From a virus, in the IMG/VR virus record IMGVR_UViG_3300009514_000001, positions 47,894-111,893 of that record: a stretch of DNA of 64,000 bases. One strand, given 5' to 3'. Position numbers and translations under genes: made by a program. The notes under the pieces are model-generated. The model was not told the origin of the DNA and did no database searches. It worked only from the letters and a program-made list of their open reading frames with translations. Shown in pieces: positions 2,879-32,381 of the stretch; position 1 is the stretch's first letter, and each line of letters opens with the position of its first letter.

Positions 2879-3379
2879 TCACCCTCGTTGGAGTTCTCGG
2901 AGGCTCTTCAGACGGTACTCGTCGAAGAGTCTCCATACGGGATCGACATAGGGGCGGACGAGAACCCTCTCCGCCTCCTCACGAGTTTCTACTCCTGGCT
3001 TGACTCTCTGCCTGGCCATGAAATAGAAGCTATAGGCAACCTCCGGACTAGACTGACACCAGACAACGACCGGCAACCCTTCGAGCCGAATGTCGTCGGT
3101 GTCGGGAACCCGGAATAGGGCTCTCGCCGTGGCTGCTACCTCAGCCGAACTGTAGTGCTTAGGTCTCTCCTCCTCGTAGAGGTCAAAGAGAGGACGCCAG
3201 ACACCCTCCTCGTAGGGTGACGCCAGATAGTTCGCCCCATGGGCAAGCCAGAAGGTGTAGCGGCCGTCCTTGACGAAGGCGTCGACCTTGGTCTTTGACA
3301 GTATACCCTTCCGAGGAGGTCTCCGTGACCGGACCCGGTCCTTGCGCTTCCTCTGTTTCTTGCGCTTCTGTCTGCCCAT
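2879..3379 (-). CDS. hypothetical protein with basic N-terminus
   Basis: 166-aa ORF abutting the amidase gene. Confidence 0.65.
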   Translation of the reverse strand: MGRQKRKKQRKRKDRVRSRRPPRKGILSKTKVDAFVKDGRYTFWLAHGANYLASPYEEGVWRPLFDLYEEERPKHYSSAEVAATARALFRVPDTDDIRLEGLPVVVWCQSSPEVAYSFYFMARQRVKPGVETREEAERVLVRPYVDPVWRLFDEYRLKSLRELQRG

Positions 3380-3562
3380 GACTTTCCGTCAGCAGATTGT
3401 TGAGTGCGTGGCGGCTCGCCACCTAATCCTCAAAACAACCCACCACCCATCCCTCGAATTACCCCTCTCCACCTTACCCACCTTAGACACCGCCACGCAC
3501 TCCTCTCGTTGTTCCTTCGATACTTGCGCCTAGCGTAGTCGACCTCAGAGGAGCGTACCCAG

Positions 3563-3919
3563 ATGAAACTACTCAGGCCCTCCCGTTGCAGCCAGTGCGG
3601 ACGCACCATCCAGGTTCCAGGGCGCGGTTCCTACCGCATCGCCTGTGAGTGTGGCCACCTCAACGAATACCGCGGCACCCCCTCCCGGAAGTGGGAGAAG
3701 CCAACGCCTCCGCGAGAGCCGGCCCCCAGGATTGTGCCCGAGCCTCGACCGGCACCGGAGCCGGAACCAGAGCCTCTCCCCGAGTGGAACAGCAGGATGC
3801 TCAAGGCCGAGCTGTTCACCACCGCCACGGAGTGGTCCCTGGATGTCAGCACTGACAGCACCAAGGCAGAAATCATCGAGGCCCTCAAAGACCTCGAAGC
3901 CAGCCGGAGCGGAGAATGA
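3563..3919 (+). CDS. Zn-ribbon protein with Pro/Glu linker and C-terminal HeH/Rho_N-like domain
   Basis: CSQC...CECG; KAELFTTA...TKAEIIEAL; GAGGAG RBS upstream. Confidence 0.75.
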   Translation: MKLLRPSRCSQCGRTIQVPGRGSYRIACECGHLNEYRGTPSRKWEKPTPPREPAPRIVPEPRPAPEPEPEPLPEWNSRMLKAELFTTATEWSLDVSTDSTKAEIIEALKDLEASRSGE

Positions 3920-9812: not shown

Positions 9813-9974
9813 CTCCCAATTGGTCCGCACTGGCTGTCCAATACTCCGGTTGTATAGGAGGCATATCATGCCAGCAGATTCCACATTTGAACAACGACGC
9901 ATCGCCCGCCGAGTGGCGGACGCCTACTTCAGAGCCCATCCCGCTGCGCCACGTGACAACAGGGCCATGCTCAG

Positions 9975-10235
9975 GAGTCAAGGTTATCGAAGCGGACCGA
10001 TGGTTTCCCAGCTCGAAGACGTGTTCTGGGTGCGGGGAAGTAAAGTCTGACTTGAGTTTGTCGGACCGGACGTACGAATGTTCGGGGTGCGGTCTCAAAC
10101 TAGATCGAGACCTGAACGCCGCAATCAATTTGAAGCAGTTGGCCGGGAGTTCGGCGGTATCAGCCTGTGGAGAGGACGTAAGACCATCAGGAGAGCTTGC
10201 TCACCTGATGGCGACCTCGATGAAGCAGGAACCGG
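9975..10235 (+). mobile_element. tnpB: IS200/IS605-family tnpB remnant (C-terminal zinc finger and RuvC-III) with probable omegaRNA/right-end region
   Basis: DRWFPSSKTCSGCG...YECSGCGLKLDRDLNAAINL; GCCTGTGGAG...GAAGCAGGAA tail; 5' part of the gene absent. Confidence 0.85.
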
Positions 10236-10260
10236 ACAGAGGAAAAAGTTCTGGAGAACG

Positions 10261-10288
10261 GGTCCAGTTGACTCCTCGCGGTCGTATA
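10261..10288 (+). promoter_or_regulatory. putative promoter, GGTCC-N14-GGTCGTATR
   Basis: same motif and spacing at 17185-17212 and 32414-32441, each shortly upstream of a start codon. Confidence 0.7.
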
Positions 10289-11740: not shown

Positions 11741-12853
11741 GTCTCCGAAGAGGTCGAGTATGCCGCCCTCGGAGGGCGCCGCGGAACGTTCTTCGTTGAG
11801 TTGGAAGAGTCGGTCGAGTAGTTCATCCTCGACTGGTCGTGTCCAGCATAGCTCGGAACGTCGAGGTCGTCCCACCCGTAGCTTCTGAGGACCTCCATCT
11901 CTTCGTGGAGCTGTTGAAGCGGGTAGTTCGCCGGCCTTGATAGTGTTGTAGAGCTTGATAGTGTTGTAGAGCTTCGTCAGGACCTGGTTCCTACGTCCTG
12001 AATGTGGACGGATTCACGCTGGCTCCGGAAGAGCGTGACGCCCTTATCGACAAGGACCCGAGGAACGCCCAAAGAATCTTCCCCTACATCGGAGGAAAAG
12101 AGGTCAATAGCTCACCGACTCAAGACTTCCATCGATACATCATCAACTTCGGCCAGATGTCGCTGGAAGAGGCCGAACAGTGGTCAGACCTGGTTGAGCG
12201 GCTGAGAAGACTCGTCAAACCGGAGAGAGATAAGCTCAAAAGAGACAATTACCGACTACTCTGGTGGAGGTTTGGAGAGCCCCAAGTAGGCCTCTACCGC
12301 GCCCTCTCCGGACTACATCGTTGTTTGGTTACGGCTGCGACTTCGAAGCATGTGATGTTCTCGTTTCAGCCGGCGGGGAGGGTGTTCGGTCACGTCCTCT
12401 ACGTGTTCCCTTTGGAGTCGTGGACGGCCTTCGCGGTGCTCCAGTCTCGGGTCCACGAGTACTGGGCTCGCATCATGGGCTCTTCTCTTCAAGGAACTTC
12501 CCGCTATACGGCGGAGACCTGCTTTCGAACCTTCCCCTTTCCTCGTGAGGACCCCAAAGAGGTCATCCTCTCGGAAGGCATCGGACAGCGGCTCTATGCC
12601 GCCCGAGCCGAGTGGATGACCTCGAATCAGAAACGAAACTCAGACCCTTGTTGGCCCCCAACGGGAGGGGGTCCGGGCGCTCCGGAGCCCGACGTAGACG
12701 AGAGTTCAGCGCGGCCGTCACTGGGTCCGGGCGCTCCGGAGCCCGACGTAGACGAGAGTTCAGCGCGGCCGTCACTGCGGCCGTCACTGGGTCCGGGCGC
12801 TCCGGAGCCCGACGTAGACGAGAGTTCAGCGCGGCCGTCACTGCGGCCGTCAC
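11741..12853. pseudogene. rearranged copy of the stand-alone MmeI-like TRD gene: N- and C-termini on the minus strand, central part (about 11983-12633) inverted onto the plus strand
   Basis: piecewise high similarity to 48658-49632; the C-terminal part has indels and has lost its stop codon. Confidence 0.85.
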
Positions 12854-12855
12854 TG
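12669..12855. repeat. three tandem copies of a 54-bp unit with nested 12-bp duplications (encodes VTAALNSRLRRAPERPDP on the minus strand)
   Basis: units start at 12669, 12723 and 12789. Confidence 0.95.
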
Positions 12856-13557
12856 AAGGGTCTGTCGAGATTCCGCCAGGTCACTCCTGGTCCTAACCAC
12901 CCATTCCACCACTTCGGCAACCAGCTCGTCCTGGGTCTTCGTGGCATCCAGAATGACCCTCCCTTTGCGGGGAGTGTTCGAGTAGGGGCCTTCGACCAGG
13001 TCGAGATAGGCCTGGCGGTACTGGGCGAGCTGGTCAGGAGTCTCGAATGAATCCGCTTTTCGACCGGCCTGGATGCGCTCGTAGGCCACCTCTGGAGCCA
13101 GGTCCATGACCAGGAGGAGGTCGGGAACTGGGCAAATCTGCGTGGCCTCGAACCAGATGCGCTGCCGCAGACCGTATATCCCTCCTTGGGCCGGCATGCG
13201 CAACGCCTGATAGACGATGGTGCTGTGGTAGTAGCGGTCCGTGACGATGACTTCGCCGCGCTCCAGGGCCGGACGGATGACCCGACGGGCGTGCTCGGCA
13301 CGGTCGAGCATGAACAGCCAGTACTCCTCCAAGGGGGAGTAGCGCTCGTCCCTGCTCTCACAGAGAAGCCTGCCGAACTTCCCGTCGCGGGTCGGCTCCC
13401 TTGTCTGGGATGCTGGAAGGCCCTTTTCCCGGAGGGCGGGGACCAGGTTGTCCACGAGGGTGCTCTTGCCCGCGCCGTCCATACCCTCAACCACGACCAA
13501 CATGCCGTGGCCCACGACACCGGCAGGAACCGGCTGACCCGTCTTCATCATCGCCAT
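12850..13557 (-). CDS. tmk: thymidylate kinase
   Basis: VVEGMDGAGKST P-loop, TREP, DRAEH, DRYYHSTIVYQ, PDL. Confidence 0.95.
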   Translation of the reverse strand: MAMMKTGQPVPAGVVGHGMLVVVEGMDGAGKSTLVDNLVPALREKGLPASQTREPTRDGKFGRLLCESRDERYSPLEEYWLFMLDRAEHARRVIRPALERGEVIVTDRYYHSTIVYQALRMPAQGGIYGLRQRIWFEATQICPVPDLLLVMDLAPEVAYERIQAGRKADSFETPDQLAQYRQAYLDLVEGPYSNTPRKGRVILDATKTQDELVAEVVEWVVRTRSDLAESRQTLQ

Positions 13558-14633: not shown

Positions 14634-15016
14634 TCAGTCTCCAAAGAGGTCGAGTATGCCGCCCTCGGAGGGCGCTGTAGTCCGTTCATTCAACACGAAG
14701 AGCCGGTCCAGCACTCCGTCCTCGAAATTCTGGTCGTGTTCGGTGTAGGGCGGGACGTCTAGGTCACCCCACCCGTAGGCTTTGAGGACCTCTCGGTCCA
14801 TCTCTTCGTGAAGCTGTTGGAGTTCGGGCAGCTCACCGGCCTTGATGGTGTTGTACAACTTCGTCAGGCCTTTCTGGTTCGAGGCCATCCACTTGGCCCG
14901 GGCCGCATAGAGACGCTGAGAACGGTGGAGCCCTGATGAATTGACCCTTCGTTGGCCTCTAGGGGCAAGGGGTCCGGACGCTCAGGACCTCGACGTAGAC
15001 GGGAGTTCAACGTCAT
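14634..15016 (-). pseudogene. internally deleted copy of the stand-alone MmeI-like TRD gene
   Basis: MTLNSRLRRGPERPDPLPLEANEG joined out of frame to QRLYAARAKWM...GGILDLFGD. Confidence 0.85.
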
Positions 15017-15983: not shown

Positions 15984-16143
15984 CGGATTTCTTGGGACAC
16001 CACGACGGCTTCTCCCCTCCTACCTTAGGGTATTTTCCACCAAAGCGTGCACGTTGCGCTGCGTCCTTGTGTCGGCATTGCCCGAAAGCTCTCTTGTGCT
16101 GGCCATTGAACGATACAAAGAAAGAACACTTTGTGCAGGTCAT
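15910..16143 (-). CDS. small Cys-rich hypothetical protein
   Basis: CTKC...C...PSWCP; ATGA coupling with the upstream gene. Confidence 0.5.
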   Translation of the reverse strand: MTCTKCSFFVSFNGQHKRAFGQCRHKDAAQRARFGGKYPKVGGEKPSWCPKKSGESCGPSRTHQPGPPDLSNPRTGC

Positions 16144-17156
16144 TCCTCTCCTCGCATTCGGTAGGTTCGCCCCTCCACCTTACCCAGGGACTCGTCGCCG
16201 CGCTTGTACGGCTTGATATATCGGAATTGGTAGCGGGGGTCGTCCCGAGGACCGCACGGAACCCACCGGCCGTGACCTCGGACCCAGTGCTCCCGAAACC
16301 CCTTTCCGGCCTCATGGCGGACGTCGGACAGCTCGCTCTCGATGCCGGGACCCACGTAGGTGATGGTCGTGGGTGGAGGCATCTTGTCCTGGAGACGACT
16401 CCTGGCAGACCGTCCGGGACGCATGCTGGCCATGCGCTTCTGGAGCTTCTGCCGCCGCTTCTGATTCGGTTGGGTGATTTTGAGATCGGGATTGTCGGTC
16501 CCGATGTAAAGCATCATGTTGAACACCGTCCGGATGACCTTGCGACAAGTCCCATCGAGGATCTTGTCAATCTCGGGGTTGGTCTTTTCGAAGGAGACGT
16601 AGCCCTTGTGGACAGGACGATGTCCCGGAGCCCCCAAAATGAGGTCGACAACGGCCTCCAGATTGCCAAGCTCAGAGGCGTTATCCATGTCCATAGTCAT
16701 CCACAAGGTGGCGTCGTCCCCCAGGTCTTTGGACCTCTCATTCGGCTCCCCCCAGAACAGGAGATGGAGGACCCGTCGGTCTTCCTCATCGAACCTCTCA
16801 GCCATGTAGACACCACGGACCTTGTGCCACTGACTCCGAGAGCCTCCCCAGAGCAACCACTCGCAATCGGGTAAGGCCACGTAGAAGCCCTGATATGGGA
16901 TGCTCAGGGTGTCGACGGGAACCCTGGCAATAGACGTCTGGGAGAACATCTCCTGAAGCTCGGACCCCACACAGAACACCTGGTGGCCGTTTCGACGGTA
17001 CATCCAGATGGCGAAGAGAAGCTCGAATGCCGAACGGTCCTGGCTGTTCGCCTCGATGATTTGCAAGGCATGGTCTGCGGGTAGTGTCTTCAGTGCGTCC
17101 AGAGTCGAGCTGGCCTGGGGCTGAACCCTACGGAACATGTCGTCGTGTGGCTTCAT
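16140..17156 (-). CDS. phage hypothetical protein with C-terminal HxVRGH basic motif
   Basis: REHWVRGHGRWVPCGP...IKPYKRG. Confidence 0.75.
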   Translation of the reverse strand: MKPHDDMFRRVQPQASSTLDALKTLPADHALQIIEANSQDRSAFELLFAIWMYRRNGHQVFCVGSELQEMFSQTSIARVPVDTLSIPYQGFYVALPDCEWLLWGGSRSQWHKVRGVYMAERFDEEDRRVLHLLFWGEPNERSKDLGDDATLWMTMDMDNASELGNLEAVVDLILGAPGHRPVHKGYVSFEKTNPEIDKILDGTCRKVIRTVFNMMLYIGTDNPDLKITQPNQKRRQKLQKRMASMRPGRSARSRLQDKMPPPTTITYVGPGIESELSDVRHEAGKGFREHWVRGHGRWVPCGPRDDPRYQFRYIKPYKRGDESLGKVEGRTYRMRGEE

Positions 17157-17184
17157 GGTTGCCTCTGTGTGCTCTCTGCCGTTA

Positions 17185-17212
17185 CATACGACCCCTGACC
17201 AACAATAGGACC
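17185..17212 (-). promoter_or_regulatory. putative promoter, GGTCC-N14-GGTCGTATR
   Basis: second copy of the motif, 28 nt upstream of the ATG at 17156. Confidence 0.7.
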
Positions 17213-17227
17213 TACCTCACTTGCAAA

Positions 17228-17712
17228 GACCACCCTCGGAAAGTGAAACGACTGCTGAGAGAGCGATACCGTTCTAAACGGGACAGTTCCTTGGGAGTCG
17301 TCCAGCGGCGCAAGCCGCCTAACGCGCCCCACCGTTGGGCCGGAAGCTTACTACCAGGGTACGACCGCCAGGTCGGACTGGCACAGCTTCAAATTCGATA
17401 CCTAGCTTTGCCTAGGTTTTGAAGAACGGTTGGAAGGGGTTGCCCTCAGCCTCACGAAGTCACGTCTGACGGTACTTTTCGAGGCCGAGGACTTGTAAGG
17501 GGGGTCGGCAAACCCTCCGCCAACTAAAAGTCACCCCCTCTGACCCCATGCAGAATTAGTAGGCAAACCCCCTCTAGACCCCCACGGCCTAGTTCGCCTT
17601 TGTTTCTAGAGACTTACAACACAGGAAGATCCGAAAAGTCGTCTCACTAAGTCGAGGTGGCTTCTCCGGGTCGTTTCGGGCATATTGCCTCAAAACCGCC
17701 AGGGGCAAGGGC
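17228..17712 (+). ncRNA. candidate large structured non-coding RNA of unknown class
   Basis: about 590-nt gap without a credible ORF; many nested complementary segments and GNRA-like loops (see findings). Confidence 0.65.
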
Positions 17713-17718
17713 ACACCG

Positions 17719-17740
17719 TTGTGTCAGTCTTCTGACACAA
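17719..17740. terminator. hairpin between the candidate ncRNA and the convergent gene; possible terminator
   Basis: TTGTGTCAG-TCTT-CTGACACAA. Confidence 0.4.
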
Positions 17741-17750
17741 GCTGACACAA

Positions 17751-18014
17751 CTACAGGTCGTCCTTCAGCTCCTTCAGCCCCCTCAGTAACTCCGTCATGT
17801 CGTTCTGGAGGGCTCTCACCCTTGACTGACCCTTCCTCGCTTCATACTCCGAGGCCACCATCACCAGGGCCTTTGCCAGGTCTGGGGGCACGCGCTCCAG
17901 GACTACACCGGGACGCATGGCGGGGAGAATGTCACACCACCTCTGGTCGTCCTCCTCATAGAAGAACATAATCCAGGGCGGCTCGTGATACTGGGGCTTC
18001 GGCCGGTCGTCCAT
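17751..18014 (-). CDS. hypothetical protein
   Basis: 87-aa ORF with coiled-coil-like C-terminus. Confidence 0.6.
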   Translation of the reverse strand: MDDRPKPQYHEPPWIMFFYEEDDQRWCDILPAMRPGVVLERVPPDLAKALVMVASEYEARKGQSRVRALQNDMTELLRGLKELKDDL

Positions 18015-18017
18015 GGG

Positions 18018-18130
18018 TTACCTGAAAGAGAAGCAGTTTCGGCAGAGGGCCTCGTATGCCTCAGAGCCTCCGATGCGAACCTCTGAGCCGGCCTTCTGAC
18101 CCTTGTAGTGTGTGGTGTGCTGGAAGTGTA
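18018..18130 (-). pseudogene. thymidine kinase C-terminal remnant
   Basis: VRIGGSEAYEALCRNCF matches the TK lasso/zinc C-terminus; no room for the rest of the gene. Confidence 0.65.
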
Positions 18131-21229: not shown

Positions 21230-24200
21230 TCACATGTCCTCCGGGAGGAACTCGCCCCACTTGGCCCTCAGTTCCTCGGGACCATTTTGGCGTGAGGAGA
21301 AGCGACTCAGGATGTCCTCTGAGGGCCACTCGACGTCTGGTAGGTCTTGGGCCAGGAGCTGGTCCGCCTCGACGTCAGAAAGCCACGAGGACGTCCTCTC
21401 GGTGAAGTCTTCGCTGGGGATGCAACCCTCGGTGACGAACCGACTGGGCTTGCTCCTAATCGTAACCCCCTTCTTGGTGGTACCCAAAACGTCGGGCCGG
21501 ACAATGGTCACCGAATCCTCGCCGCGGGTTACGGCCACGTAGGCCAGGCGGCGCTCGGACGCGATGTCTTCCTCAGACTCCGAATTCGGGTGTGGGAAGC
21601 CGCCGTGCCCAGGACCACCCCCCTCCCACATGGGGACGAACAGATGGGGAGCCTCCAGGCCCTTCCATCCGTGGACGGTGTCGAGCTGAACGGCATTGAC
21701 CGCAGCGTCGAAATCGGGGTCATTCGGGTTGTCAGACTTCTGGAGCTTGGCGTTGGCTCGCTCCAGTTCCGACATGTAGGACGCGAACTCGTCGATACTG
21801 GGGTATGACGAAGCGGCTGTCTTCAGGATGGTCAGAGGGCCTAGAGCATAGTCCTCAATGGCCTGCTCCAGGGTGACATCCTCAGTCCCCTTGAGTGCGC
21901 TGGCCGAGACATCCTCCATCGCCTTAGCGTCGTTCTTGACCCGCTCGACGAGGTTGTCGGTGATGCTCTTGTCGTCCTGACCACCCTTGCGGTCAAGGAT
22001 GTAGTTGAGCAGCCCCTGGGTGTCGAGAGGAGTGTCTCGATCTTTGCTGCTGAGGAGAGTAATCTCCTGGAGATAGTCGGCGAAGGGCTTGACGTACTCC
22101 CGGTTGCGTCGCCGTGCACGGCCGACGTAGACCTCATCCCAACCGCCACCGAGGAGCCAGGCCAGGAGGTTCTTACCTCTCGCCTTGGAAGCCGCCTTCT
22201 TGAAGGTGTTGATTGAGATGCCCCAGTTCAAAGACCTGAGGGCATCCAGGACCAGGGGGTCGACCCTCTTGGCCGGCTCCGTGAGAGCCGAAGCCCCCAT
22301 ATTGGAGAGTTGCATCAGACTCAGGACGGACTTGGCCGGGCCCTTGAAGAAGTTGTACTTGGACCGGAACGGGATGCCGAGCTGAATCATGGCAACCCCG
22401 TACTCGTAGGCCTCGCGGTTGGTCCTCACGGCAATGCCGAAGTCCCGGGCCTTGAGAGAAGCATCGTCACCCTGAACCTGGTCGGCGATGGCCTGAGCAA
22501 CGTAGGGACCGAGGGCCTCCCGGGACGGAACCGTGACCTCTCGGATGCTGCCCTCACCCTTGCGTTCGACGTTCGCCTGGCAGACCATCTTGATCTGCTT
22601 CTCGTTGTGGGCAATCATCTGGTTCGCCGCGTCGACGATGGCCGAGCCGGACCGATAGTTCATCCGCAGAATCTTCGTCTCGAACCCTTCGCCGCCGGGA
22701 GTCAGGTCCGACTTCTCGATGAAGAGGTCGGGGTCAGCTCCGCGGAAGCTGTAAATAGAGTTGTGTGAGAGGATGCCGTTGGCGAAGAAGTTGGAGGCGT
22801 CTTCAACATCCAGGTCGACGAACTTGGTGTCCTCCGTCCGATTTACGGCGACCACCTTCTCTTGGACGATGGTGTACTGGGCACCTTCCGGAAGGTTGGG
22901 TCCGCTGATGGCCCTCCCCTTGAACATGGGGACCAACACCGGAACTGTCATACCGGGCTTGACCGCGGACGCCGTCACCAACCTCATCGGTCCCTCAGGG
23001 GTGCTCAAGCGCCGGGACAGCATTGCCCCGGTCCGTTGCACGACGTCCTGGGCAAATGCGAGCGCGTCGCGATAGTTGGCGAACCACCGGCGAAGACGGT
23101 TGCGTCCTTGGGCGGTCCTCACAAACCGCACCCCCTCCAGGCAGTCGTCCAGGTCGTAGCCGGTCCACTCCATCGCTACCTGAGTGTTCGCTCCAGAGTG
23201 GGCAATCATGTTGAGGGTACGACGCTTTCGTCCGTGTTTTGTGTAGCTCCGTGACATCCAGTTGGGCAGGTCGAAGCTCAGGTTGCGTGCTTCTAGTAGC
23301 CTCCCGCCGTTCCTTCCGAACTCCCGGAACAAGGTCTCGATACGGTCCTGGTTGAGACCCCTATGCACTCCGTTGAACACTGCGGTGGGGATTCCGTAAC
23401 GGAGACTGTACTGAGTCTCTTTCAGGAGGGCCTTTTCGCGGTCCTCACAGACATCGATGACCCAGAGCTTCTCGGCCTTCTCCAGAAAAGCTCTCCCACC
23501 GAAATGGTTGAGGTACTGGGTGTCCTTACCTTTGTTGGTGACACCTACCCGGAACCCCATATCCCGGCGCCACATCAGATAGACGATGTGCTGGCCGCCC
23601 TCAGTGATGATGTCTCCGACCCACAGCTTATGGTTGGGTGACATCAGGAGGTGCTGTCCACCCTCGGTGATGACATCCAACCCCCAGGTCCACGACGATT
23701 TCACAGCATGACGTACCTTCTGGGGGACGACTTTGCCGTTGCGGTAGGAAAGGACCACGTCCCCCGGCTGAATAGCCGAGGCGTGCTTGCTGTTTCCTCC
23801 TGGTGTTGCAATGACCGAGTTGGCGGCCACGCACTGCTTGTCGTCTCCAATCAACGCCAGGGTGTCGGCTGTCATGTCTCCGTCTTCCCGTGGCTCCTGT
23901 GTTTCAGGGTCGTAATACCCAGCAACCAGGCCGACAAATAGGTGTTGGCTGTTGTGCGAGAGGATGTCTCCTCCGAAGAAATTGGACGCTCTCTCGACCT
24001 CAATATCGAAGAACTCACCTCCATCGACGAGGGCAACCTCCTCAATTATCTCCAGCTCCACAGAGGATTCGCGCAGAGGAGGCAACGGGTCCTCGGCCCT
24101 TCTAAGCTGCTCTTTCCGCATTAGAGTGTGAAATTTTTCTCTCGCCCCCTTACCCATCCCCGAGCAGTCAATGCCGAGACGAGAGGCCAGTCTTCGGTAC

Positions 24201-27200
24201 TCGGACAAGGGGAGGAGTTCGGAATACCTAACATCTACCAACCCGCCAGTCTTCACTACCGGAACGGCCATGCCAGGGAACAGAGAGGAGGCTGTGGTAA
24301 GGGGGAGTTTTTCTCCTCCAATCCTTAGGTTGTCCAGAAGAAAGGAACCGTTTGTCTCAGCGACTTTCTCTGCCAGCTTACGAGCTTCGACATAGGAAGG
24401 AACCAACTTGTTAAAGGTACGACGACCCCCTTTGACCACATAGGTTGCTAGCCCGCAGCTATCTACGTCGTCTCCAGACCATGACATCGAGACCCTAGAA
24501 CCGACTTGATACCGGACAGACCGATGAGCATTGAGAGAAACGACCCTTCGAACCTCCTTGCCCCTAGTACTCGTCTGATTGACCCAATGAGGGTAGTCAA
24601 AGTAGAGATCATGGGCCTCCAGTATCCGTCGTCCGTTATGTCCGAACTCCAAGAACACCCCGTTGATACGCTCCTGGTTACACCCCCGAACAGAGCCCCG
24701 AACAGAGCCCTCGTAGAGGTAGGTCGGAACCTGGTAGCGAAGGGAGTAGAGCTGTTCCTTGAGGAGAATGTCCTCCTCTTCACCCACTTCCAAGAGCCAA
24801 GCGCGATCTGCCCTTTCTGAACCAGCCCTACTTGAGGAGCCTCCCGCACTTCGAGAAAAAGGACGAGTCGAGGCACCGATACGAAAACCGAGGTCCTCCC
24901 GGTACATGAGGTAAAGACCCATTTGACCCTCGGGAAGGAGGCCTCGGAAAGGGGTCGCATAGATGCGGTGGTTGGGGGACATCACCAGCTCACGTCCAGA
25001 GGAGGTGGTGATACGATATCCCCTCGACCAGTTGCTCTTTTTCTTGGCCAACACCCTGTTGTAGACCACCTTTCCATTCTCGAACGAGAGGACTGAGCCG
25101 CCCACCTGGACATCACGGATGGCCTTCTCCCCTTCCGGAGTGTAGACGAGGGTCGACCCTAGGACGCAAGCATTCAAATCCTGAGCTTCGTCGACGACGA
25201 CCATTTTGAACCGACGTTGGATGCGAGTCCGCACGTTGCGGTTCTCAATCATCATCTTCGAGGCGCCGATGAGCATGTCATCGAAGTCGCCCTGGCCCTC
25301 GTACTCGCTGGCGTTTCCCTTGAGCCACTCGTAGGCCCCGTAGACTGCCGCATAGATGGAGGCGTTAGACTGGCTGAGTGCCCCGTCTCTGGCCCCATCC
25401 TGAACAGCCTTGCCGTGTTCCTCGTGAGCCGCCTTGCCAGGGGCCAGAAGCTGGCCCTTGGTCTTTGAGACGTAGAGGGCGAAACGACCAATGGGGATGG
25501 CCGACTTGGAGTCGCCGGACCCTTCATGGAAGTCATCGTCCCAGGAGGCCCCCAAGTTGAACCACTGGTTCGCCGGCTGCTCTCCCCAGATGGGATTCTT
25601 GCTCTTGACCCGACCTGACCACGGGGGCTCGTCGGTTTCATCACGGGCGGTCCTTAGGACCGAACTTGTAGTCGCCACAGAAGCGAGCTTGTAGTGGCCC
25701 CACCCCCGACGTTGGAGGGCTCGACGGGTACCTCCGCGCTCATTCTGGTCGGAGGTGACGGCATAGCCCAAGGCACGGTTGATGAAGTCCTTCTGCTTCT
25801 GAGTCATCTTGGTGGGGTCGACAGGACTCGACTTCCACTTCTGAATGATGGATTGGGACTGGCGGTTCCACCTACTTGGACCGTACTTGCCTTCGTTCCA
25901 TTTCAGGAAGTCCATGACGGCAAGAAACACTGAAGAAAGCTCGTCGATTCGCTCTTGGGACTCGTCGACATCGCCCTGCACCTTGGGGAAGAAGGTGGCT
26001 TCCGCGTCGGGCTGGGGCCAGGAGTCCTGCGAGGGCATCATGAGAACCTGGAGGATGGACAGACGAACCAGCTCGGCCTGGTCATATCCTGAGATGATCT
26101 TGCCACCTCTCCTCTTGCCGTAGGTCATACCCATCTTCAGAGCGACGCTGTGGGTCGTCCCGAAGCCTGACTTGCCCTGGCGGTCGGCGTCGATATCGCC
26201 GCCGTAGTTCTTGACGCGCTCAATAAGCTCGGCGCTCGACTTCTTCGTGAAGGAGCAGGCCAGAATCTGGTTGGCCGTCAGACCCACCTCGTTCATATGG
26301 TAGACGATCTTGCCCGCCAGAACTCTCGTGTTGTGAGAGACAACACCGTTCGCAAGGAAGCTGTGCGTTGTCGGGACCGTGAAGTCATAGACCCGGTGGG
26401 TACCCTCCACACGACGCACCGACACCACCTCGTCAAGGCACATGTCGGAGAGCTTATGGAGAATAGCCGCCTCTGGTCCTTCTGCACCTTTCACGAGACG
26501 TTTGAGTTGCGCCCTTGACGGAGTTCGGTTGCCGAGCAAGTAGTGCTTGACCTGGACCCATCGGTCATCCATCAACAGCGACTGAGACTTCCCGTGCCAT
26601 CTACCGGCTTGCTTCCACCACTCTCGGACACCTTTGAGAAGGTCTCCTACATGGGGTACTCCGATGTTGGGGTTGCAGTCCTTTGCGCACAGACTATTCA
26701 GGTCATCGGCCTTCTTGAAGTCGTATCGGAACCCAACGACCTCCCGGAACCCCCGGAGCTGGTCACCGCTGATGAGGATGCGCCAGTACGTGTGGTCGTA
26801 CCCCTCAACATGCTTGGGCTTGAGCATTCCTACAACGCCGAGGCCCAGGAGCATCTGGTGTACCTGACGGGCAAGCGTCTCTGAGGCTGACAACCACTCG
26901 AAAGAACGGTCTCCAGTAGCCGTGCCGTCTGTATCAAACAGACCCTGCAAAAACCTGATCCTCTCCGCGTCGGAAGAGGACAGGAGCCACGCTGGGACTA
27001 TCTTGTCTCGCGCGGAGGAGAAGAACATTCCCTGCTGACGGAGACGCTCCTGAAGTGAGGCACTCCAAAACGTGTGAGTAACGCTCTTCATGTCCTCTTT
27101 GGTTGTCTCTTTGGTTGTCTCTTTGGGTTGCTCGCCCCAGAATTTCTGGGCTAGGCGATAGAAGTGAGAAGGAAGGAAGTCGCCCCCACGAGACCAACAA

Positions 27201-28465
27201 ACTCTGGTCTTCTTCGAATCACACCAACCATCACCCATGAACATGCCCAGGAGGTATGCCTCTTCCGGGTCGACGTTCTCCTTTCCCGTGTCAAGAGCAT
27301 ACCCAGGCTTGAGGACTACGAACTGCCCCTCTTTCATGACATCGAGACGCGTCCACACGGATTGCCCGTCCCAAGTCAGGAGAGGGTGCTCTGGAGTCCC
27401 TCGTAGGCGGATGCCTGAACGAGTTTGGACTTCGATGACCTTGCTCTCCCCCATGTCGAGCCAGGTGGCCTTCTCCAGAGTTGTGTCCAGGGTTTCCGGA
27501 TTGACCGACTTGACCCAGTCCTTTCCACTACACTGATCTAGGCGGAAGGTACCACCCTCAAGTGCCACAAGGGCATCTCCCGTCAGGCATTTGCCCGATC
27601 CCGCCCCGGCTGCAATGACAGCCCGGCCCCGAACCAGCATCGCATCCTCCTGCTCCGGAGAGAGGTTGATGTGTTTGCCAGTCTGTGTCCTGAATTCCTG
27701 GGCGGGGGGGATGGACTTCGAGGCCGCCACAGCCGCTACTGAGGTAGGAGCTTGGCTCGTCTCGACGACCTCTTCGATGCGAGCGTTCAGGGCCGCTTTT
27801 CGCTCCTTGAGAGCTACGGAGCGAGCTTCTGTGGGGTCTGTGGAGGAGATGGCCTGCTTGACGTCTGCGACCTTCTCAGCCAGTATCGCAACCGTCTCGG
27901 CGTCCGACTGGGCCTCTTCGGTCTCGCTCAGTCCGGCGCCGAGGTTCTGTGCCGCGACCTTGACCCAGTTGCGTGGCTTGACGATGCCACTGACGGCCGG
28001 GATGGCTGCCAAGGCCCTCAGGACGGCCGCCGGGTCTTCCAGCTTCGAGGCATGGAGAACGCCCTTGACGGCGGCTCGGGAGCGACCCGTGAACACACTG
28101 CGTAGGACGTCTGCCTTGTTGACCAAACGACTGAGAGCTGTGGTCAGGAAGTCTACCTGAGCGAAGACGACGACGTCGGCGCGACCTTTGGCCCGCTTCG
28201 CCTTGTTCATCTTGCCCTTGACGCCACCAATGCGTCCCTCCTCGACCAAGGGATACATGTGCTTCTTTAGGTTGGCCTCCATCTCCTTGCGATAGAGACG
28301 GGCGATCTCAAAGCCCCGCTTGAGATGGTCGTCGCGACCGCGGGCTTCCATACCTCGGGCGTAAGCCCCGAACCCAACCCAGAAGACACTGAGGTCCACC
28401 AGGCGGTCTGGTGTAGTCACATGGTCGCTGCCTTTCTTCTTCGCCGCTGCTTCGCGAGTAGTCAT
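21230..28465 (-). CDS. uvrD: UvrD/PcrA-like SF1 helicase with three inteins and a long N-terminal extension
   Basis: AGAGSGK|T, SFTKK, VDEAQD, IGDDKQ|SIYSFRGA, NYRS, TVHGWKGLE, ERRLAYVAVTR. Confidence 0.92.
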   Translation of the reverse strand: MTTREAAAKKKGSDHVTTPDRLVDLSVFWVGFGAYARGMEARGRDDHLKRGFEIARLYRKEMEANLKKHMYPLVEEGRIGGVKGKMNKAKRAKGRADVVVFAQVDFLTTALSRLVNKADVLRSVFTGRSRAAVKGVLHASKLEDPAAVLRALAAIPAVSGIVKPRNWVKVAAQNLGAGLSETEEAQSDAETVAILAEKVADVKQAISSTDPTEARSVALKERKAALNARIEEVVETSQAPTSVAAVAASKSIPPAQEFRTQTGKHINLSPEQEDAMLVRGRAVIAAGAGSGKCLTGDALVALEGGTFRLDQCSGKDWVKSVNPETLDTTLEKATWLDMGESKVIEVQTRSGIRLRGTPEHPLLTWDGQSVWTRLDVMKEGQFVVLKPGYALDTGKENVDPEEAYLLGMFMGDGWCDSKKTRVCWSRGGDFLPSHFYRLAQKFWGEQPKETTKETTKEDMKSVTHTFWSASLQERLRQQGMFFSSARDKIVPAWLLSSSDAERIRFLQGLFDTDGTATGDRSFEWLSASETLARQVHQMLLGLGVVGMLKPKHVEGYDHTYWRILISGDQLRGFREVVGFRYDFKKADDLNSLCAKDCNPNIGVPHVGDLLKGVREWWKQAGRWHGKSQSLLMDDRWVQVKHYLLGNRTPSRAQLKRLVKGAEGPEAAILHKLSDMCLDEVVSVRRVEGTHRVYDFTVPTTHSFLANGVVSHNTRVLAGKIVYHMNEVGLTANQILACSFTKKSSAELIERVKNYGGDIDADRQGKSGFGTTHSVALKMGMTYGKRRGGKIISGYDQAELVRLSILQVLMMPSQDSWPQPDAEATFFPKVQGDVDESQERIDELSSVFLAVMDFLKWNEGKYGPSRWNRQSQSIIQKWKSSPVDPTKMTQKQKDFINRALGYAVTSDQNERGGTRRALQRRGWGHYKLASVATTSSVLRTARDETDEPPWSGRVKSKNPIWGEQPANQWFNLGASWDDDFHEGSGDSKSAIPIGRFALYVSKTKGQLLAPGKAAHEEHGKAVQDGARDGALSQSNASIYAAVYGAYEWLKGNASEYEGQGDFDDMLIGASKMMIENRNVRTRIQRRFKMVVVDEAQDLNACVLGSTLVYTPEGEKAIRDVQVGGSVLSFENGKVVYNRVLAKKKSNWSRGYRITTSSGRELVMSPNHRIYATPFRGLLPEGQMGLYLMYREDLGFRIGASTRPFSRSAGGSSSRAGSERADRAWLLEVGEEEDILLKEQLYSLRYQVPTYLYEGSVRGSVRGCNQERINGVFLEFGHNGRRILEAHDLYFDYPHWVNQTSTRGKEVRRVVSLNAHRSVRYQVGSRVSMSWSGDDVDSCGLATYVVKGGRRTFNKLVPSYVEARKLAEKVAETNGSFLLDNLRIGGEKLPLTTASSLFPGMAVPVVKTGGLVDVRYSELLPLSEYRRLASRLGIDCSGMGKGAREKFHTLMRKEQLRRAEDPLPPLRESSVELEIIEEVALVDGGEFFDIEVERASNFFGGDILSHNSQHLFVGLVAGYYDPETQEPREDGDMTADTLALIGDDKQCVAANSVIATPGGNSKHASAIQPGDVVLSYRNGKVVPQKVRHAVKSSWTWGLDVITEGGQHLLMSPNHKLWVGDIITEGGQHIVYLMWRRDMGFRVGVTNKGKDTQYLNHFGGRAFLEKAEKLWVIDVCEDREKALLKETQYSLRYGIPTAVFNGVHRGLNQDRIETLFREFGRNGGRLLEARNLSFDLPNWMSRSYTKHGRKRRTLNMIAHSGANTQVAMEWTGYDLDDCLEGVRFVRTAQGRNRLRRWFANYRDALAFAQDVVQRTGAMLSRRLSTPEGPMRLVTASAVKPGMTVPVLVPMFKGRAISGPNLPEGAQYTIVQEKVVAVNRTEDTKFVDLDVEDASNFFANGILSHNSIYSFRGADPDLFIEKSDLTPGGEGFETKILRMNYRSGSAIVDAANQMIAHNEKQIKMVCQANVERKGEGSIREVTVPSREALGPYVAQAIADQVQGDDASLKARDFGIAVRTNREAYEYGVAMIQLGIPFRSKYNFFKGPAKSVLSLMQLSNMGASALTEPAKRVDPLVLDALRSLNWGISINTFKKAASKARGKNLLAWLLGGGWDEVYVGRARRRNREYVKPFADYLQEITLLSSKDRDTPLDTQGLLNYILDRKGGQDDKSITDNLVERVKNDAKAMEDVSASALKGTEDVTLEQAIEDYALGPLTILKTAASSYPSIDEFASYMSELERANAKLQKSDNPNDPDFDAAVNAVQLDTVHGWKGLEAPHLFVPMWEGGGPGHGGFPHPNSESEEDIASERRLAYVAVTRGEDSVTIVRPDVLGTTKKGVTIRSKPSRFVTEGCIPSEDFTERTSSWLSDVEADQLLAQDLPDVEWPSEDILSRFSSRQNGPEELRAKWGEFLPEDM
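22760..23833 (-). mobile_element. intein 3 in UvrD (motif III), 358 aa, non-LAGLIDADG insert
   Basis: CVAANS...SPNH...SHN|S. Confidence 0.92.
23951..25168 (-). mobile_element. intein 2 in UvrD (after Walker B), 406 aa, non-LAGLIDADG insert
   Basis: CVLGST...SPNH...SHN|S. Confidence 0.92.
26330..27589 (-). mobile_element. intein 1 in UvrD (Walker A), LAGLIDADG type, 420 aa
   Basis: CLTGD...SHN|T; LLGMFMGDG and FLQGLFDTDG blocks. Confidence 0.95.
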
Positions 28466-29833: not shown

Positions 29834-29939
29834 CTCCTCAAGGACGAGTATCTGGCTGGGGGGCACTTTGCCAAGCGCGCCCTCTTCTTAGAGTACCTGG
29901 GTTTGGTCAAGTTCGCGAACAGCACCCGAGACCAGGGCC

Positions 29940-30335
29940 CTACTGGCTTTCCTCAGGACCATCCTTCCCCCTCAAGCTCGTGGCGACCCCGAGACTGGCA
30001 TTGATTTTGGCAATTCGGACAAATTTGTCGAGGGAGGCCTGACCCAGAATTGTGCCCGTTTGGACAAACCCGCTGACGATGATGATCCCCATCATCAGGC
30101 CCCATGCAAGGACAGAAAGATCCCGCCCATACACGAACAGCATGGCAGCCAGAATGGCCTTCCACCCCGCCTCTGCGATAAGGTAGGCAATGAACTTTTT
30201 GCTACTCAGAGGGGACTTCTCAAAGTTGTGGCCCTGTTCGTCCTCGGACTCTGGCCCGGGCTCCACCTCGTCGACGACGATATCGATGTCGTCGGGGTCC
30301 ACCATCTCTGGGTCCATCGGTTCGTGGTCTGACAT
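29940..30335 (-). CDS. small membrane protein, possible holin
   Basis: acidic N-terminus, SKKF then two hydrophobic segments. Confidence 0.6.
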   Translation of the reverse strand: MSDHEPMDPEMVDPDDIDIVVDEVEPGPESEDEQGHNFEKSPLSSKKFIAYLIAEAGWKAILAAMLFVYGRDLSVLAWGLMMGIIIVSGFVQTGTILGQASLDKFVRIAKINASLGVATSLRGKDGPEESQ

Positions 30336-30787
30336 CAGGGTCCTCCGAAGTATCCACCGCGAGGACCAGTGGTGCGGATGCCAACCGTGTTGAACTTGCG
30401 CATGAGGTCGTCCGCTTCGTCGCGGGTGTCCTTGGCAGGTGTGAACACGAACGGACAGCGGGTGCGCAGATTGTTGAGTCTGTCCTGCTCTTGAGGCAGG
30501 AGACTGGGGAGAACCTTCTCGAAGTCCTCCCGGGCCTTTGCAATGGTCCGGAGTGCATGGAGGATGAACCCATCCTCCAGGTGCATGGGGTTGGCAGGGT
30601 CGCCGGGGTTGCCGGAATTGTCGACCCAGGGGGTCGCTTCCTGACCCCACGTCAGGGCGTAACGCTGAGCCTCGAACTCGGCCCGGAACACAGTCCCGTC
30701 AGTTACTGTCCACTGCGGTGCCCCTCTGAGCGTGTTCTGCCCAGAGTCGTTCACCCACCAAATTCTCGCCAAATCGTCCGCCAGCAT
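30335..30787 (-). CDS. hypothetical protein
   Basis: GAGGAGG RBS; 150-aa ORF. Confidence 0.7.
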   Translation of the reverse strand: MLADDLARIWWVNDSGQNTLRGAPQWTVTDGTVFRAEFEAQRYALTWGQEATPWVDNSGNPGDPANPMHLEDGFILHALRTIAKAREDFEKVLPSLLPQEQDRLNNLRTRCPFVFTPAKDTRDEADDLMRKFNTVGIRTTGPRGGYFGGP

Positions 30788-30844: not shown

Positions 30845-31891
30845 TCAGTCCTCAATAAGAGCGTCGAACTCCGCCTCAGACAACCCAGCGTCTTCCAGGG
30901 CCTGGTTGGGGTCGATCTTGTCGGCGGTGTCGAGCATCTTGCCCATAAACCCCCCCGTCGTCCTCGGGATGACCTGCTTGACCTGCTTCGGCGGAGGAGA
31001 TTCTTCCACGTCCTCTTCCAAACCCTCGAAAAACTCCTCTCCAAGATCATCGTCTTGGCTGTCCGTGTCCAGCCCGTCCAGGAGACCTTTGGGGGCCCTC
31101 TTGATGCCGTTGGTCCCGGACGTCTTGGGTTTGGGCTTGGATGTCTTCACAATGGCCTTCCCGTTGGGTTTGGGCTCCTCGGCCTCGGCCTTCTTGGGTT
31201 CCTCGGCCTCGGCCTTCTTGGGCTCCTCGGCCTTCTTGGGTTCCTCGGCCTTCTTGGGTTCCTCGGCCTTCTTGGGTTCCTCGGCCTTCTTGGGTTCCTC
31301 GGCCTCGGCCTTCTTGGGCTCCTCGGCCTTCTTGGGCTCCTCGGCCTTCTTGGGCTCCTCGGCCTTCTTGGGCTCCTCGGCCTTCTTGGGCTCCTTGGTC
31401 GCTTCCTGACGAGCCGCCTCCGCGACGAGGAACGCCTGAATCTCTGTTCGTACCCGGCCCATGTGACTGATGTCCACTCCCAATTGCCGGGCCCACTGAC
31501 GAAGAGGCTCCATAAACATCGTCTTGTGGGTATAGGCCCTCTTGGCCGGGGGGTCGACCAGTGGAGACCTACCATCTTCCTGTGCGGGAACGGAAACGGC
31601 GACACCCTCAAGGATAACCCACAACAAACCATCCGCGTCAACTCGGATGTTTGTGCCTCCTTCGCTCTCCGCCGCCATCTTGGTGAAGGGATTGTTGGGA
31701 AGACCGCGAGTCGCTTCCTTGACCGCCTCTTCGAGTTGTCTCCGACACCGAACCAGGTTGGACCATATAGTGTGGGAGGTCGCCGGGTCGGGGTGGTAGG
31801 CCTTGCTCGGCGCACTCAAGAGATGTTGGGCCAACTTTTGAGGCAAGGGGCGGCGGTTGCCACCATCGCGGTCATCGTCATCATCGCTCAT
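30845..31891 (-). CDS. low-complexity protein with EPKKAE repeats and HeH-like segment
   Basis: MSDDDDD start; 11 PKKA(EA)EE units; acidic tail. Confidence 0.7.
   Translation of the reverse strand: MSDDDDDRDGGNRRPLPQKLAQHLLSAPSKAYHPDPATSHTIWSNLVRCRRQLEEAVKEATRGLPNNPFTKMAAESEGGTNIRVDADGLLWVILEGVAVSVPAQEDGRSPLVDPPAKRAYTHKTMFMEPLRQWARQLGVDISHMGRVRTEIQAFLVAEAARQEATKEPKKAEEPKKAEEPKKAEEPKKAEEPKKAEAEEPKKAEEPKKAEEPKKAEEPKKAEEPKKAEAEEPKKAEAEEPKPNGKAIVKTSKPKPKTSGTNGIKRAPKGLLDGLDTDSQDDDLGEEFFEGLEEDVEESPPPKQVKQVIPRTTGGFMGKMLDTADKIDPNQALEDAGLSEAEFDALIED
31169..31396. repeat. coding tandem repeat of 18/24-bp units
   Basis: CCTCGGCCTTCTTGGG(C/T)T units, 11 copies. Confidence 0.95.
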
Positions 31892-31895
31892 GACA

Positions 31896-32381
31896 TCAAC
31901 CCCCCTCAAGCTCGAAAGACACCCTCTCCAACTCGACGAACTCCCCTTCGACGAAGGACACGCGCCCACTGACGTTCATCCGGAAGGGACGGGACTTCTT
32001 GAACTGCTCGATGAGGCGGGTGTCCGTCAGCCGGAACCCTCCGCGCCAACCGAGAAGACTGGCATACAGGAAATCCAAGGCGGTAGGCTCGGAAATCTCG
32101 GCCACATGACAGACTAGAAGGGGAACGTCCTTGACGTCGGCCCCTCGCTCAGGAACCTCGATCTTGCCCTCCGAGGCCTTCAGGCGTGACCTAGCTTCCA
32201 GGTAGTCGGCCTGGAAGCGGAGACTCTCCTGTTCCCCCTTCGAGAGTCCAGTCCCCTGCGCAATCTTGTCGACGTACAGGGTCTCAATCCGCATGTCCGG
32301 GTAGGACTCCAGCGCCCACGCCAGGCGGGGGTTGTCCGAAGCCCAGGATTCGTACGCCTCAGTTTTCTTCATGTCACTCAA
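31896..32381 (-). CDS. hypothetical protein
   Basis: AAGGAGG RBS and promoter motif upstream. Confidence 0.75.
   Translation of the reverse strand: MSDMKKTEAYESWASDNPRLAWALESYPDMRIETLYVDKIAQGTGLSKGEQESLRFQADYLEARSRLKASEGKIEVPERGADVKDVPLLVCHVAEISEPTALDFLYASLLGWRGGFRLTDTRLIEQFKKSRPFRMNVSGRVSFVEGEFVELERVSFELEGG

Follow-up and report, generated by a model that had tools for sequence, protein, structure and literature searches.

A likely relic of an IS607-type TnpB transposon right end, with the helices of an omega-RNA scaffold, in a viral genome

Introduction

The closest described counterparts of the locus reported here are guide RNAs encoded at the right ends of TnpB transposons. In the IS200/IS605-type element ISDra2, the reRNA consists of the 3′ end of tnpB and the right end (RE), followed by about 16 nt of flanking DNA that serve as the guide (available excerpts of PMC8612924), and TnpB and Cas12 guides alike are described as sharing a conserved pseudoknot between the nexus and the RNA 3′ end that is essential to their activity (available excerpts of PMC10690162). 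The reRNA of the IS607-family element ISFba1 (RAGATH-18, Rfam RF03064) is a right-end guide RNA with multiple stem-loops and pseudoknots which, according to the accessible part of PMC11061315, is independent of the coding sequence, the corresponding TnpBs averaging 390 aa. HEARO, the omega-RNA of IscB, is likewise a transposon-encoded structured guide RNA of the OMEGA class, and GOLLD and ROOL are structured RNAs of phage DNA.

The present locus lies in an IMG/VR virus record of 222,005 bp and ~60% G+C (hereafter G000), of which bases 47894-111893 were analyzed as a single stretch of 64,000 nt termed the window; coordinates refer to the window unless a record or locus is named. Its positions 17228-17712 had originally been predicted to encode a large, ornate RNA of 485 nt, of the GOLLD or ROOL type or of a new class, on the plus strand and antisense to the neighboring genes. 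Our analysis points to a more precise identity for this claimed new giant phage RNA, namely the guide-RNA end of an RNA-guided transposon.

As far as the excerpts of PMC8612924 allow the comparison, the module resembles the ISDra2 reRNA in being encoded by the tnpB 3′ end and the RE, with a scaffold that overlaps the ORF, and in that conservation stops at the RE while the flank supplies the guide; like the published TnpB reRNAs covered by the excerpts of PMC10690162, it has a loop-to-3′-end pseudoknot, which is predicted in our case. It departs from ISDra2 (PMC8612924, same excerpts) in that the parent family is assigned an IS607-type serine-recombinase TnpA and has TnpBs of ~475 aa, and in that the ~190-nt scaffold sits almost wholly inside the conserved C-terminal coding tail, the tnpB gene itself being gone from the window. 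With the ISFba1 reRNA it shares the nature of a right-end guide RNA of an IS607-family TnpB, built of multiple stem-loops with a pseudoknot, whereas its scaffold, unlike that of ISFba1, overlaps the ORF (PMC11061315, accessible part). It belongs with the HEARO/IscB omega-RNA to the transposon-encoded structured guide RNAs of the OMEGA class but has no Rfam match, and its partner family is TnpB (PF01385/PF07282) rather than IscB; with GOLLD and ROOL it has phage DNA and structure in common, but it again has no Rfam match and is a ~190-nt unit derived from a protein gene, with a known partner protein family.

A TnpB omega-RNA or right end is therefore a known kind of feature, and what is described here is a scaffold family in the coding tail of ~475-aa IS607-type TnpBs for which Rfam holds no model; the supplements to the cited papers may contain related omega-RNA models. 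A limited literature search, like the accessible part of a 2026 OMEGA review (PMC13565253), yielded no right-end-only omega-RNA copies in phages.

Results

The intergenic gap and its neighbors

The long gap on which the original prediction was built is real: 594 bp without a credible gene (17157-17750) separate two minus-strand ORFs, 16140-17156 (338 aa) and 17751-18014 (87 aa), neither of which matched a Pfam family. No relative of the 338-aa protein was found in viral contigs and consequently no syntenic or empty-site allele could be found. A blastn search ('distant' setting) of 17100-17800 against phage and plasmid collections gave no match, no sigma-70-like promoter was predicted in 16900-18100, and a tRNA/tmRNA scan detected none. 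An Rfam search covering GOLLD, ROOL, OLE, HEARO, group I/II introns, RNase P and tmRNA returned no gathering-score match in the 64 kb; at E ≤ 10 only two noise matches appeared in 17000-17900 (RmaA, 17.7 bits, and HOXA11-AS1_5, 12.7 bits), and RAGATH-18 (RF03064) had no match there at this threshold.

A tnpB remnant ends at the same position in three copies

Homology to every other copy begins at about 17217 and stops at 17430. The segment thus bounded (17217-17430, 214 bases, plus strand) is the 3′ remnant of an IS607-family TnpB element and comprises tnpB codons ~408-472, frameshifted, and the RE. A second copy is present in the same record, where window positions 17268-17432 recur in inverted orientation across the contig junction (G000 221868-222005 and 1-124) with 91-93% identity. 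A third was found by an exact-pattern scan in the 86.6-kb viral contig G001 and is 89% identical over window 17217-17431; the 17-nt pattern had hit nine loci in viral contigs, of which only the G001 locus aligned past the seed, and two further patterns scanned in viral contigs found G001 alone. G000 has a 96-bp direct terminal repeat (1-96 and 221910-222005) and a CheckV completeness estimate of 42%; this repeat sits within the second orphan copy, so the repeat may have induced the circularization, and the actual genome may be larger.

In G001 the copy forms the tail of a 121-aa ORF matching PF07282 (Cas12f1-like TNB, TnpB zinc ribbon; E = 1.2e-12). With this ORF as the query, 191 longer proteins were obtained at E ≤ 0.001 among 414 candidates; among the matches listed, proteins of 430-500 aa carrying PF01385 and/or PF07282 predominated, the best was 90% identical and most covered 83-100% of the query. 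Since the G001 ORF matches TnpBs, the region proposed as an RNA doubles as the conserved coding tail of a TnpB family. Residues D241, E324 and D392 were invariant when 40 of these proteins were aligned, and we take them to be the RuvC triad.

As judged from sequence comparison, 17217-17430 is homologous to the last ~65 codons and the right end of ~475-aa TnpB genes. A tblastn search with P0001, a TnpB of this cognate family, placed aa ~408-445 at 17216-17329 and aa 448-472 at 17335-17409, in two frames because of a 1-nt deletion near 17330. The reading frame of the window copy is thus broken, and everything upstream of codon ~408 is missing: the DNA upstream of 17217 is unrelated and includes a minus-strand gene. 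An intact tnpB overlapping the scaffold, present in the 57 relatives described below, is absent from the window.

Copy 2 retains tnpB aa 419-472 and the G001 copy aa 355-472 (P0001 numbering). The 5′ limit is accordingly not the same in every copy (17217 in copy 1, the equivalent of 17268 in copy 2, tnpB aa 355 in G001), and the 3′ end is fixed at 17430 in all of them. Copy 1 is antisense to its neighbors and copy 2 runs in the sense of its own; the genes flanking the orphan copies are not common to G000 and G001, from which it follows that the three copies occupy different sites. A search of the 222-kb record with P0001 matched aa 407-472 (copy 1) and aa 419-472 (copy 2) only and detected no cognate TnpB, including its N-terminal part. 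No Y1 transposase was found in G000 either, and the single Resolvase match (G000 29936-30355) adjoins a TnpB of another subfamily; none adjoins 17217-17430.

The parent element

The DNA of relatives comprised 80 genome-contig loci, five of them close (from Myxococcota, Actinomycetota, Altiarchaeales and Planctomycetota MAGs), and 79 metagenome-contig loci. The search covered 85 loci, i.e. the five close genome loci, the 79 metagenome loci and G001, all of which contain the C-terminal region. Enough 3′ sequence was available at 70 loci, the window and G001 not counted; seven exact duplicates were dropped, as were six loci whose aligned end was not ...CGGT owing to point changes or misaligned ends (L111, L137, L141, L158, L164 and L178), and the remaining 57 were aligned. 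All 57 end in ...(A/T)ACGGT and are unrelated from the next base onward, a common ...ACGGT end followed by divergence being the signature of a transposon right end.

Eight of the 16 ORFs tested upstream of intact relatives encode MerR-HTH and Resolvase domains and abut tnpB. Because of this arrangement the parent element is assigned, on its gene content, to the IS607 type with a serine-recombinase TnpA. No Rfam family, RF03064 included, was found at the right ends of the 11 family loci scanned (10 intact relatives and G001). Matches to RF03064 were sub-threshold only: one falls within tnpB at L157 and not at the right end, the other at L010, at the 3′ end of the G000 TnpB 219034-220383 discussed below, with 26.4 bits against a gathering score of 44.9.

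Two further observations concern the intact elements. Four cognate-family TnpB copies (L107, L109, L112 and L118) lie on one metagenome contig of 528,282 bp, and others were seen on contigs of 499, 443 and 257 kb. At L165, three tandem tRNA genes (3367-3596) are located ~700 bp downstream of the right end of an intact element.

A covarying RNA structure in the coding tail

In the intact relatives, the stretch homologous to the window segment carries an RNA structure with strong covariation, which ends at ...ACGGT and is followed by unrelated sequence. Its 3′ domain, delimited by covariance-model match and covariation, corresponds to window 17323-17430 on the plus strand and starts with a nexus-like hairpin GCCC/GGGC (17326-29/17337-40) whose loop contains ACCGU (17331-35); three helices (17342-48/17385-90, 17355-58/17378-81 and 17362-66/17371-75) and a terminal stem-loop (17394-17423) follow. 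Complementarity further predicts a pseudoknot between the ACCGU loop and the 3′-terminal ACGGU (17331-35/17426-30); its five pairs are standard in 56/56 distinct sequences but invariant, and thus speak through complementarity only, with no covariation of their own.

Pairs of the 3′ domain were counted in a hand-written structure of seven helices, pseudoknot included, over the 56 distinct sequences from the 57 intact-locus relatives. Its 36 pairs were paired in 93.5% of 1982 cells and 25 of them changed on both sides (298 such cells). None of 500 shuffles reached any of the five measures used, and sliding the partners by 1-3 columns gave 24.6-51.4% paired. RNAalifold, run on the family, predicted 41 pairs, 28 of them with compensatory change.

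The 5′ domain of this omega-RNA-like scaffold (17248-17301, plus strand) was checked by pair counts and folding. It consists of helix P1 (17248-17264/17286-17301) around the hairpin CCGUU-CUA-AACGG (17269-17281); the 13 bp of P1 were paired in 92.7% of cells over the 57 homologues, with 10 of the 13 pairs changing on both sides. The hairpin GCGGC-GCAA-GCCGC (17305-17318, plus strand), which had been listed in the original prediction, exists in the window and falls in a peripheral stretch of variable length among the homologues. Its loop (17310-17313) reads GCAA in the window versus UUGC in copy 2 and G001, an exact inversion as produced by hairpin-mediated flips.

A covariance model (R1; 114 positions, 31 pairs) was built for the 3′ domain only, from the 57 metagenome and MAG relatives and with no window sequence. 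It matched window 17323-17430 on the plus strand over its full length (model 1-114 of 114; 103.4 bits, E = 2.3e-22) and nothing else in the 64 kb. Copy 2 scored 103.8 bits (E = 1.8e-22; L002 1503-1611, minus strand), with two broken pairs in one hairpin, and the G001 copy 111 bits (E = 3.7e-24; L005 1607-1715, plus strand). The alignment and the model of this scaffold family can now be used for annotating such right ends.

The window copy keeps every helix of the family on the plus strand. Its segment 17236-17430 folds with a z-score of −3.80 on the plus strand (0/200 shuffles as good) versus −1.41 on the minus strand (19/200), and in the plus-strand minimum free energy (MFE) fold P1 and the nexus hairpin form together with the remaining helices supported by covariation. 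When the window and G001 were compared, all substitutions read at paired positions kept the pairing, three double compensatory changes among them: hairpin 17362-75 is CGACC/GGUCG in the window versus CCUCC/GGAGG in G001 (G-C to C-G and A-U to U-A), and hairpin 17269-81 is CCGUU/AACGG versus CCGUC/GGCGG (U-A to C-G).

Fate of the complementary segments first listed

A conserved, covarying module on the plus strand, antisense to the neighboring genes as had been proposed, is thus borne out by pair counts, covariance model and folding, with a scaffold of ~190 nt in place of 485 nt. All complementary segments named at the outset could be read from the sequence at the positions first given, and several recur as inverted repeats: 17230-38/17653-60 and 17243-52/17638-47 (outer helices), 17254-59/17445-50, 17268-75/17423-30, 17305-18, 17343-48/17385-90, 17362-75 and 17401-16 (first domain), and 17475-81/17632-38, 17493-99/17613-19 and 17500-06/17577-83 ('domain 2'). 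Three inner hairpins of the first domain, GAAGCT/AGCTTC, CGACC/GGTCG and CCTAG/CTAGG, are conserved in the family. The segments exist, but their arrangement into a single nested architecture conflicts with the covariation-supported helices. The proposed helix ACCGTTCT/AGAACGGT (17268-75/17423-30) is paired in only 63.6% of cells, its central pairs being broken in 28-41 of the 57 homologues; in the homologues the ACCGTTCT arm is instead an arm of a variable, covarying local hairpin and the AGAACGGT arm is the pseudoknot partner. Likewise, the outer arm GTGAAACGAC (17243-52) shares bases with the covarying local helix P1, whose 5′ strand is 17248-17264. The expectation of folding better than shuffled sequence held for a part of the region only: the whole of 17228-17712 reached z-scores of −2.73 on the plus and −2.82 on the minus strand (1/100 shuffles as good on each), and the signal of 17236-17430 given above contrasts with that of the downstream flank.

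The flank downstream of the right end

Downstream of the right end, 17431-17750 folds with z = −1.93 on the plus strand (5/100 shuffles as good) and z = −3.09 on the minus strand, the sense of the neighboring genes (1/100). No second copy of it exists in G000, and one 22-nt 'domain 2' pattern had no match in viral contigs. The first bases past the end (17431-17450, plus strand) occupy the place of a guide of ~16-20 nt and are not conserved between the copies, which diverge right after ACGGT. The longest non-self matches of the would-be guides in the 222-kb record were 13 nt (for 17431-17450) and 11 nt versus ~11.6 expected by chance, and no target elsewhere in G000 was therefore found beyond chance.

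The rest of the intergenic DNA (17451-17750), with 'domain 2' and the right-hand outer arms, lies outside the element and likely belongs to the two minus-strand neighbors, as the 3′ UTR/terminator region of 17751-18014 and as upstream DNA of 16140-17156. We conclude that 17431-17712, 'domain 2' included, is ordinary flanking intergenic DNA. Two direct copies and one inverted copy of CTGACACAA lie in 17718-17751 and form a hairpin of 9-10 bp right after the stop of the minus-strand gene 17751-18014, a possible terminator, though one without a T-run after it.

Other TnpBs and remnants in the record

G000 encodes two intact TnpBs, at 31111-32346 (plus strand, 411 aa; L009 589-1824) and 219034-220383 (minus strand, 449 aa; L010 1366-2715). 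They belong to another subfamily, with 80% identity between the two and 23% identity to P0001. Their right ends finish in ...AAGTTTCGGAGAACGGT, the terminal ...AGAACGGT being common to them and to the orphan copies, and R1 matched the right end only of the second (L010 1351-1400, minus strand; 7.8 bits, E = 4.7). The Resolvase gene lies ~750 bp upstream of TnpB 31111-32346, with a 185-aa ORF between them. We had also considered AGAACGGT as a phage promoter motif and rejected it: most of its 18 occurrences in the genome fall within genes, and those that are informative are TnpB right ends.

A C-terminal remnant of this other subfamily is found at window ~9968-10265 (plus strand; aa 316-408, 71% identical), which ends in ...GGAGAACGGG. 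The tnpB body is missing upstream of it, which makes it a further right-end-only relic. All three tnpB remnants of G000 and the one of G001 have kept the right end, and no N-terminal-only remnant was found.

Discussion

We interpret 17217-17430 (plus strand) as a right-end fragment of an IS607-family TnpB transposon that encodes an omega-RNA (reRNA) scaffold and is likely an inert relic, a reading to which we give a probability of roughly 0.8. By analogy with published TnpB systems, TnpB would bind the transcript of an intact element, the loop-to-3′-end pseudoknot (ACCGU 17331-35 with ACGGU 17426-30) would form, and the 16-20 nt past the right end would guide cutting of the empty donor site, so that recombination could restore the transposon. 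If the plus strand of the window copy is transcribed, its RNA would be expected to fold into the scaffold with 17431-~17450 in the guide position; the rest of tnpB would have been lost, leaving the right-end piece behind as a relic. Since no cognate protein was found in G000, this RNA is most likely without function. That no cognate tnpB was detected is weaker evidence than it appears, because the completeness estimate is 42% and the terminal repeat falls within copy 2, and a complete element may be located off the contig.

The intact helices and the 89-93% likeness of the three orphan copies fit recent decay and would also fit selection on the RNA. A working stand-alone omega-RNA, used in trans by a TnpB of the host, of a co-infecting element or of the record itself and serving as a guide or, by tying up the nuclease, as a decoy, is unlikely in our view. 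It would account for the preservation of every scaffold helix in copy 1, for substitutions between copies that preserve pairing, for the retention of the right end by the three remnants of G000 and the one of G001 with no N-terminal-only counterpart, and for the ...AGAACGGT terminus shared with the resident TnpBs. However, the cognate TnpB was not found in G000, the resident TnpBs share just 23% identity with the cognate family and have a right end that scores 7.8 bits, one hairpin of copy 2 has two broken pairs, and the pair-keeping substitutions could all date from the time when the parent elements were active; moreover, no promoter-like site was predicted on the plus strand, and matches of the guides elsewhere in the record do not exceed chance. 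Cross-use of the scaffold by the two resident TnpBs may nevertheless occur, despite this low R1 score. Stand-alone omega-RNAs were reportedly noted by Altae-Tran et al. in 2021. That the phage keeps right-end-only modules as guide or decoy RNAs that exploit a TnpB in trans, from the host or from a co-infecting element, we regard as slightly more doubtful still; if true, the survival of right ends only (4/4 remnants) would reflect such selection, or else abortive guide-driven homing that copies inward from the right end.

A MITE-like non-autonomous transposon, with ACCGTTCT/AGAACGGT as the inverted repeat at the ends of a 163-bp core (17268-17430) that is mobilized as a unit, is very improbable: copy 2 does start and stop at exactly these repeats, and two copies lie in opposite orientation in one genome, but tnpB coding sequence extends beyond this 5′ limit by 51 nt in copy 1 and by ~215 nt in G001, so that only the 3′ end is fixed, and the left repeat is an arm of a variable local hairpin, the proposed pairing being broken in 28-41/57 homologues. 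Hardly credible, finally, and largely refuted is one multi-domain RNA of ~485 nt spanning 17228-17712, of a new or GOLLD/ROOL-like class, for even though all its complementary segments exist and the whole-region MFE fold uses the outer helices (z = −2.73), it has no Rfam match, homology in the three copies and the 57 relatives stops at 17430 and leaves 'domain 2' and the right-hand outer arms outside, outer arm 17243-52 clashes with P1, 'domain 2' has a plus-strand z of −1.93 with 5/100 shuffles as good, and over the whole region the two strands fold equally well.

Under the preferred reading, that of a decayed TnpB right end, a 222-kb record with two intact TnpBs and three right-end-only remnants raises the question of how TnpB elements decay or spread in phages.

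Additional features of the window

Two further loci of the window were noted in passing. A minus-strand ORF of 2411 aa (21230-28465) encodes a UvrD-type helicase split by intein sequences (Intein_splicing, LAGLIDADG_3 and Hint domains). At 12004-13050 (plus strand) and 14634-14888 (minus strand), a match to an MmeI target-recognition domain was noted; the two ORFs, on opposite strands, match consecutive parts of one PHROG of 1429 positions, phrog_25988, as would fit a restriction-modification-like gene that has been broken or rearranged.
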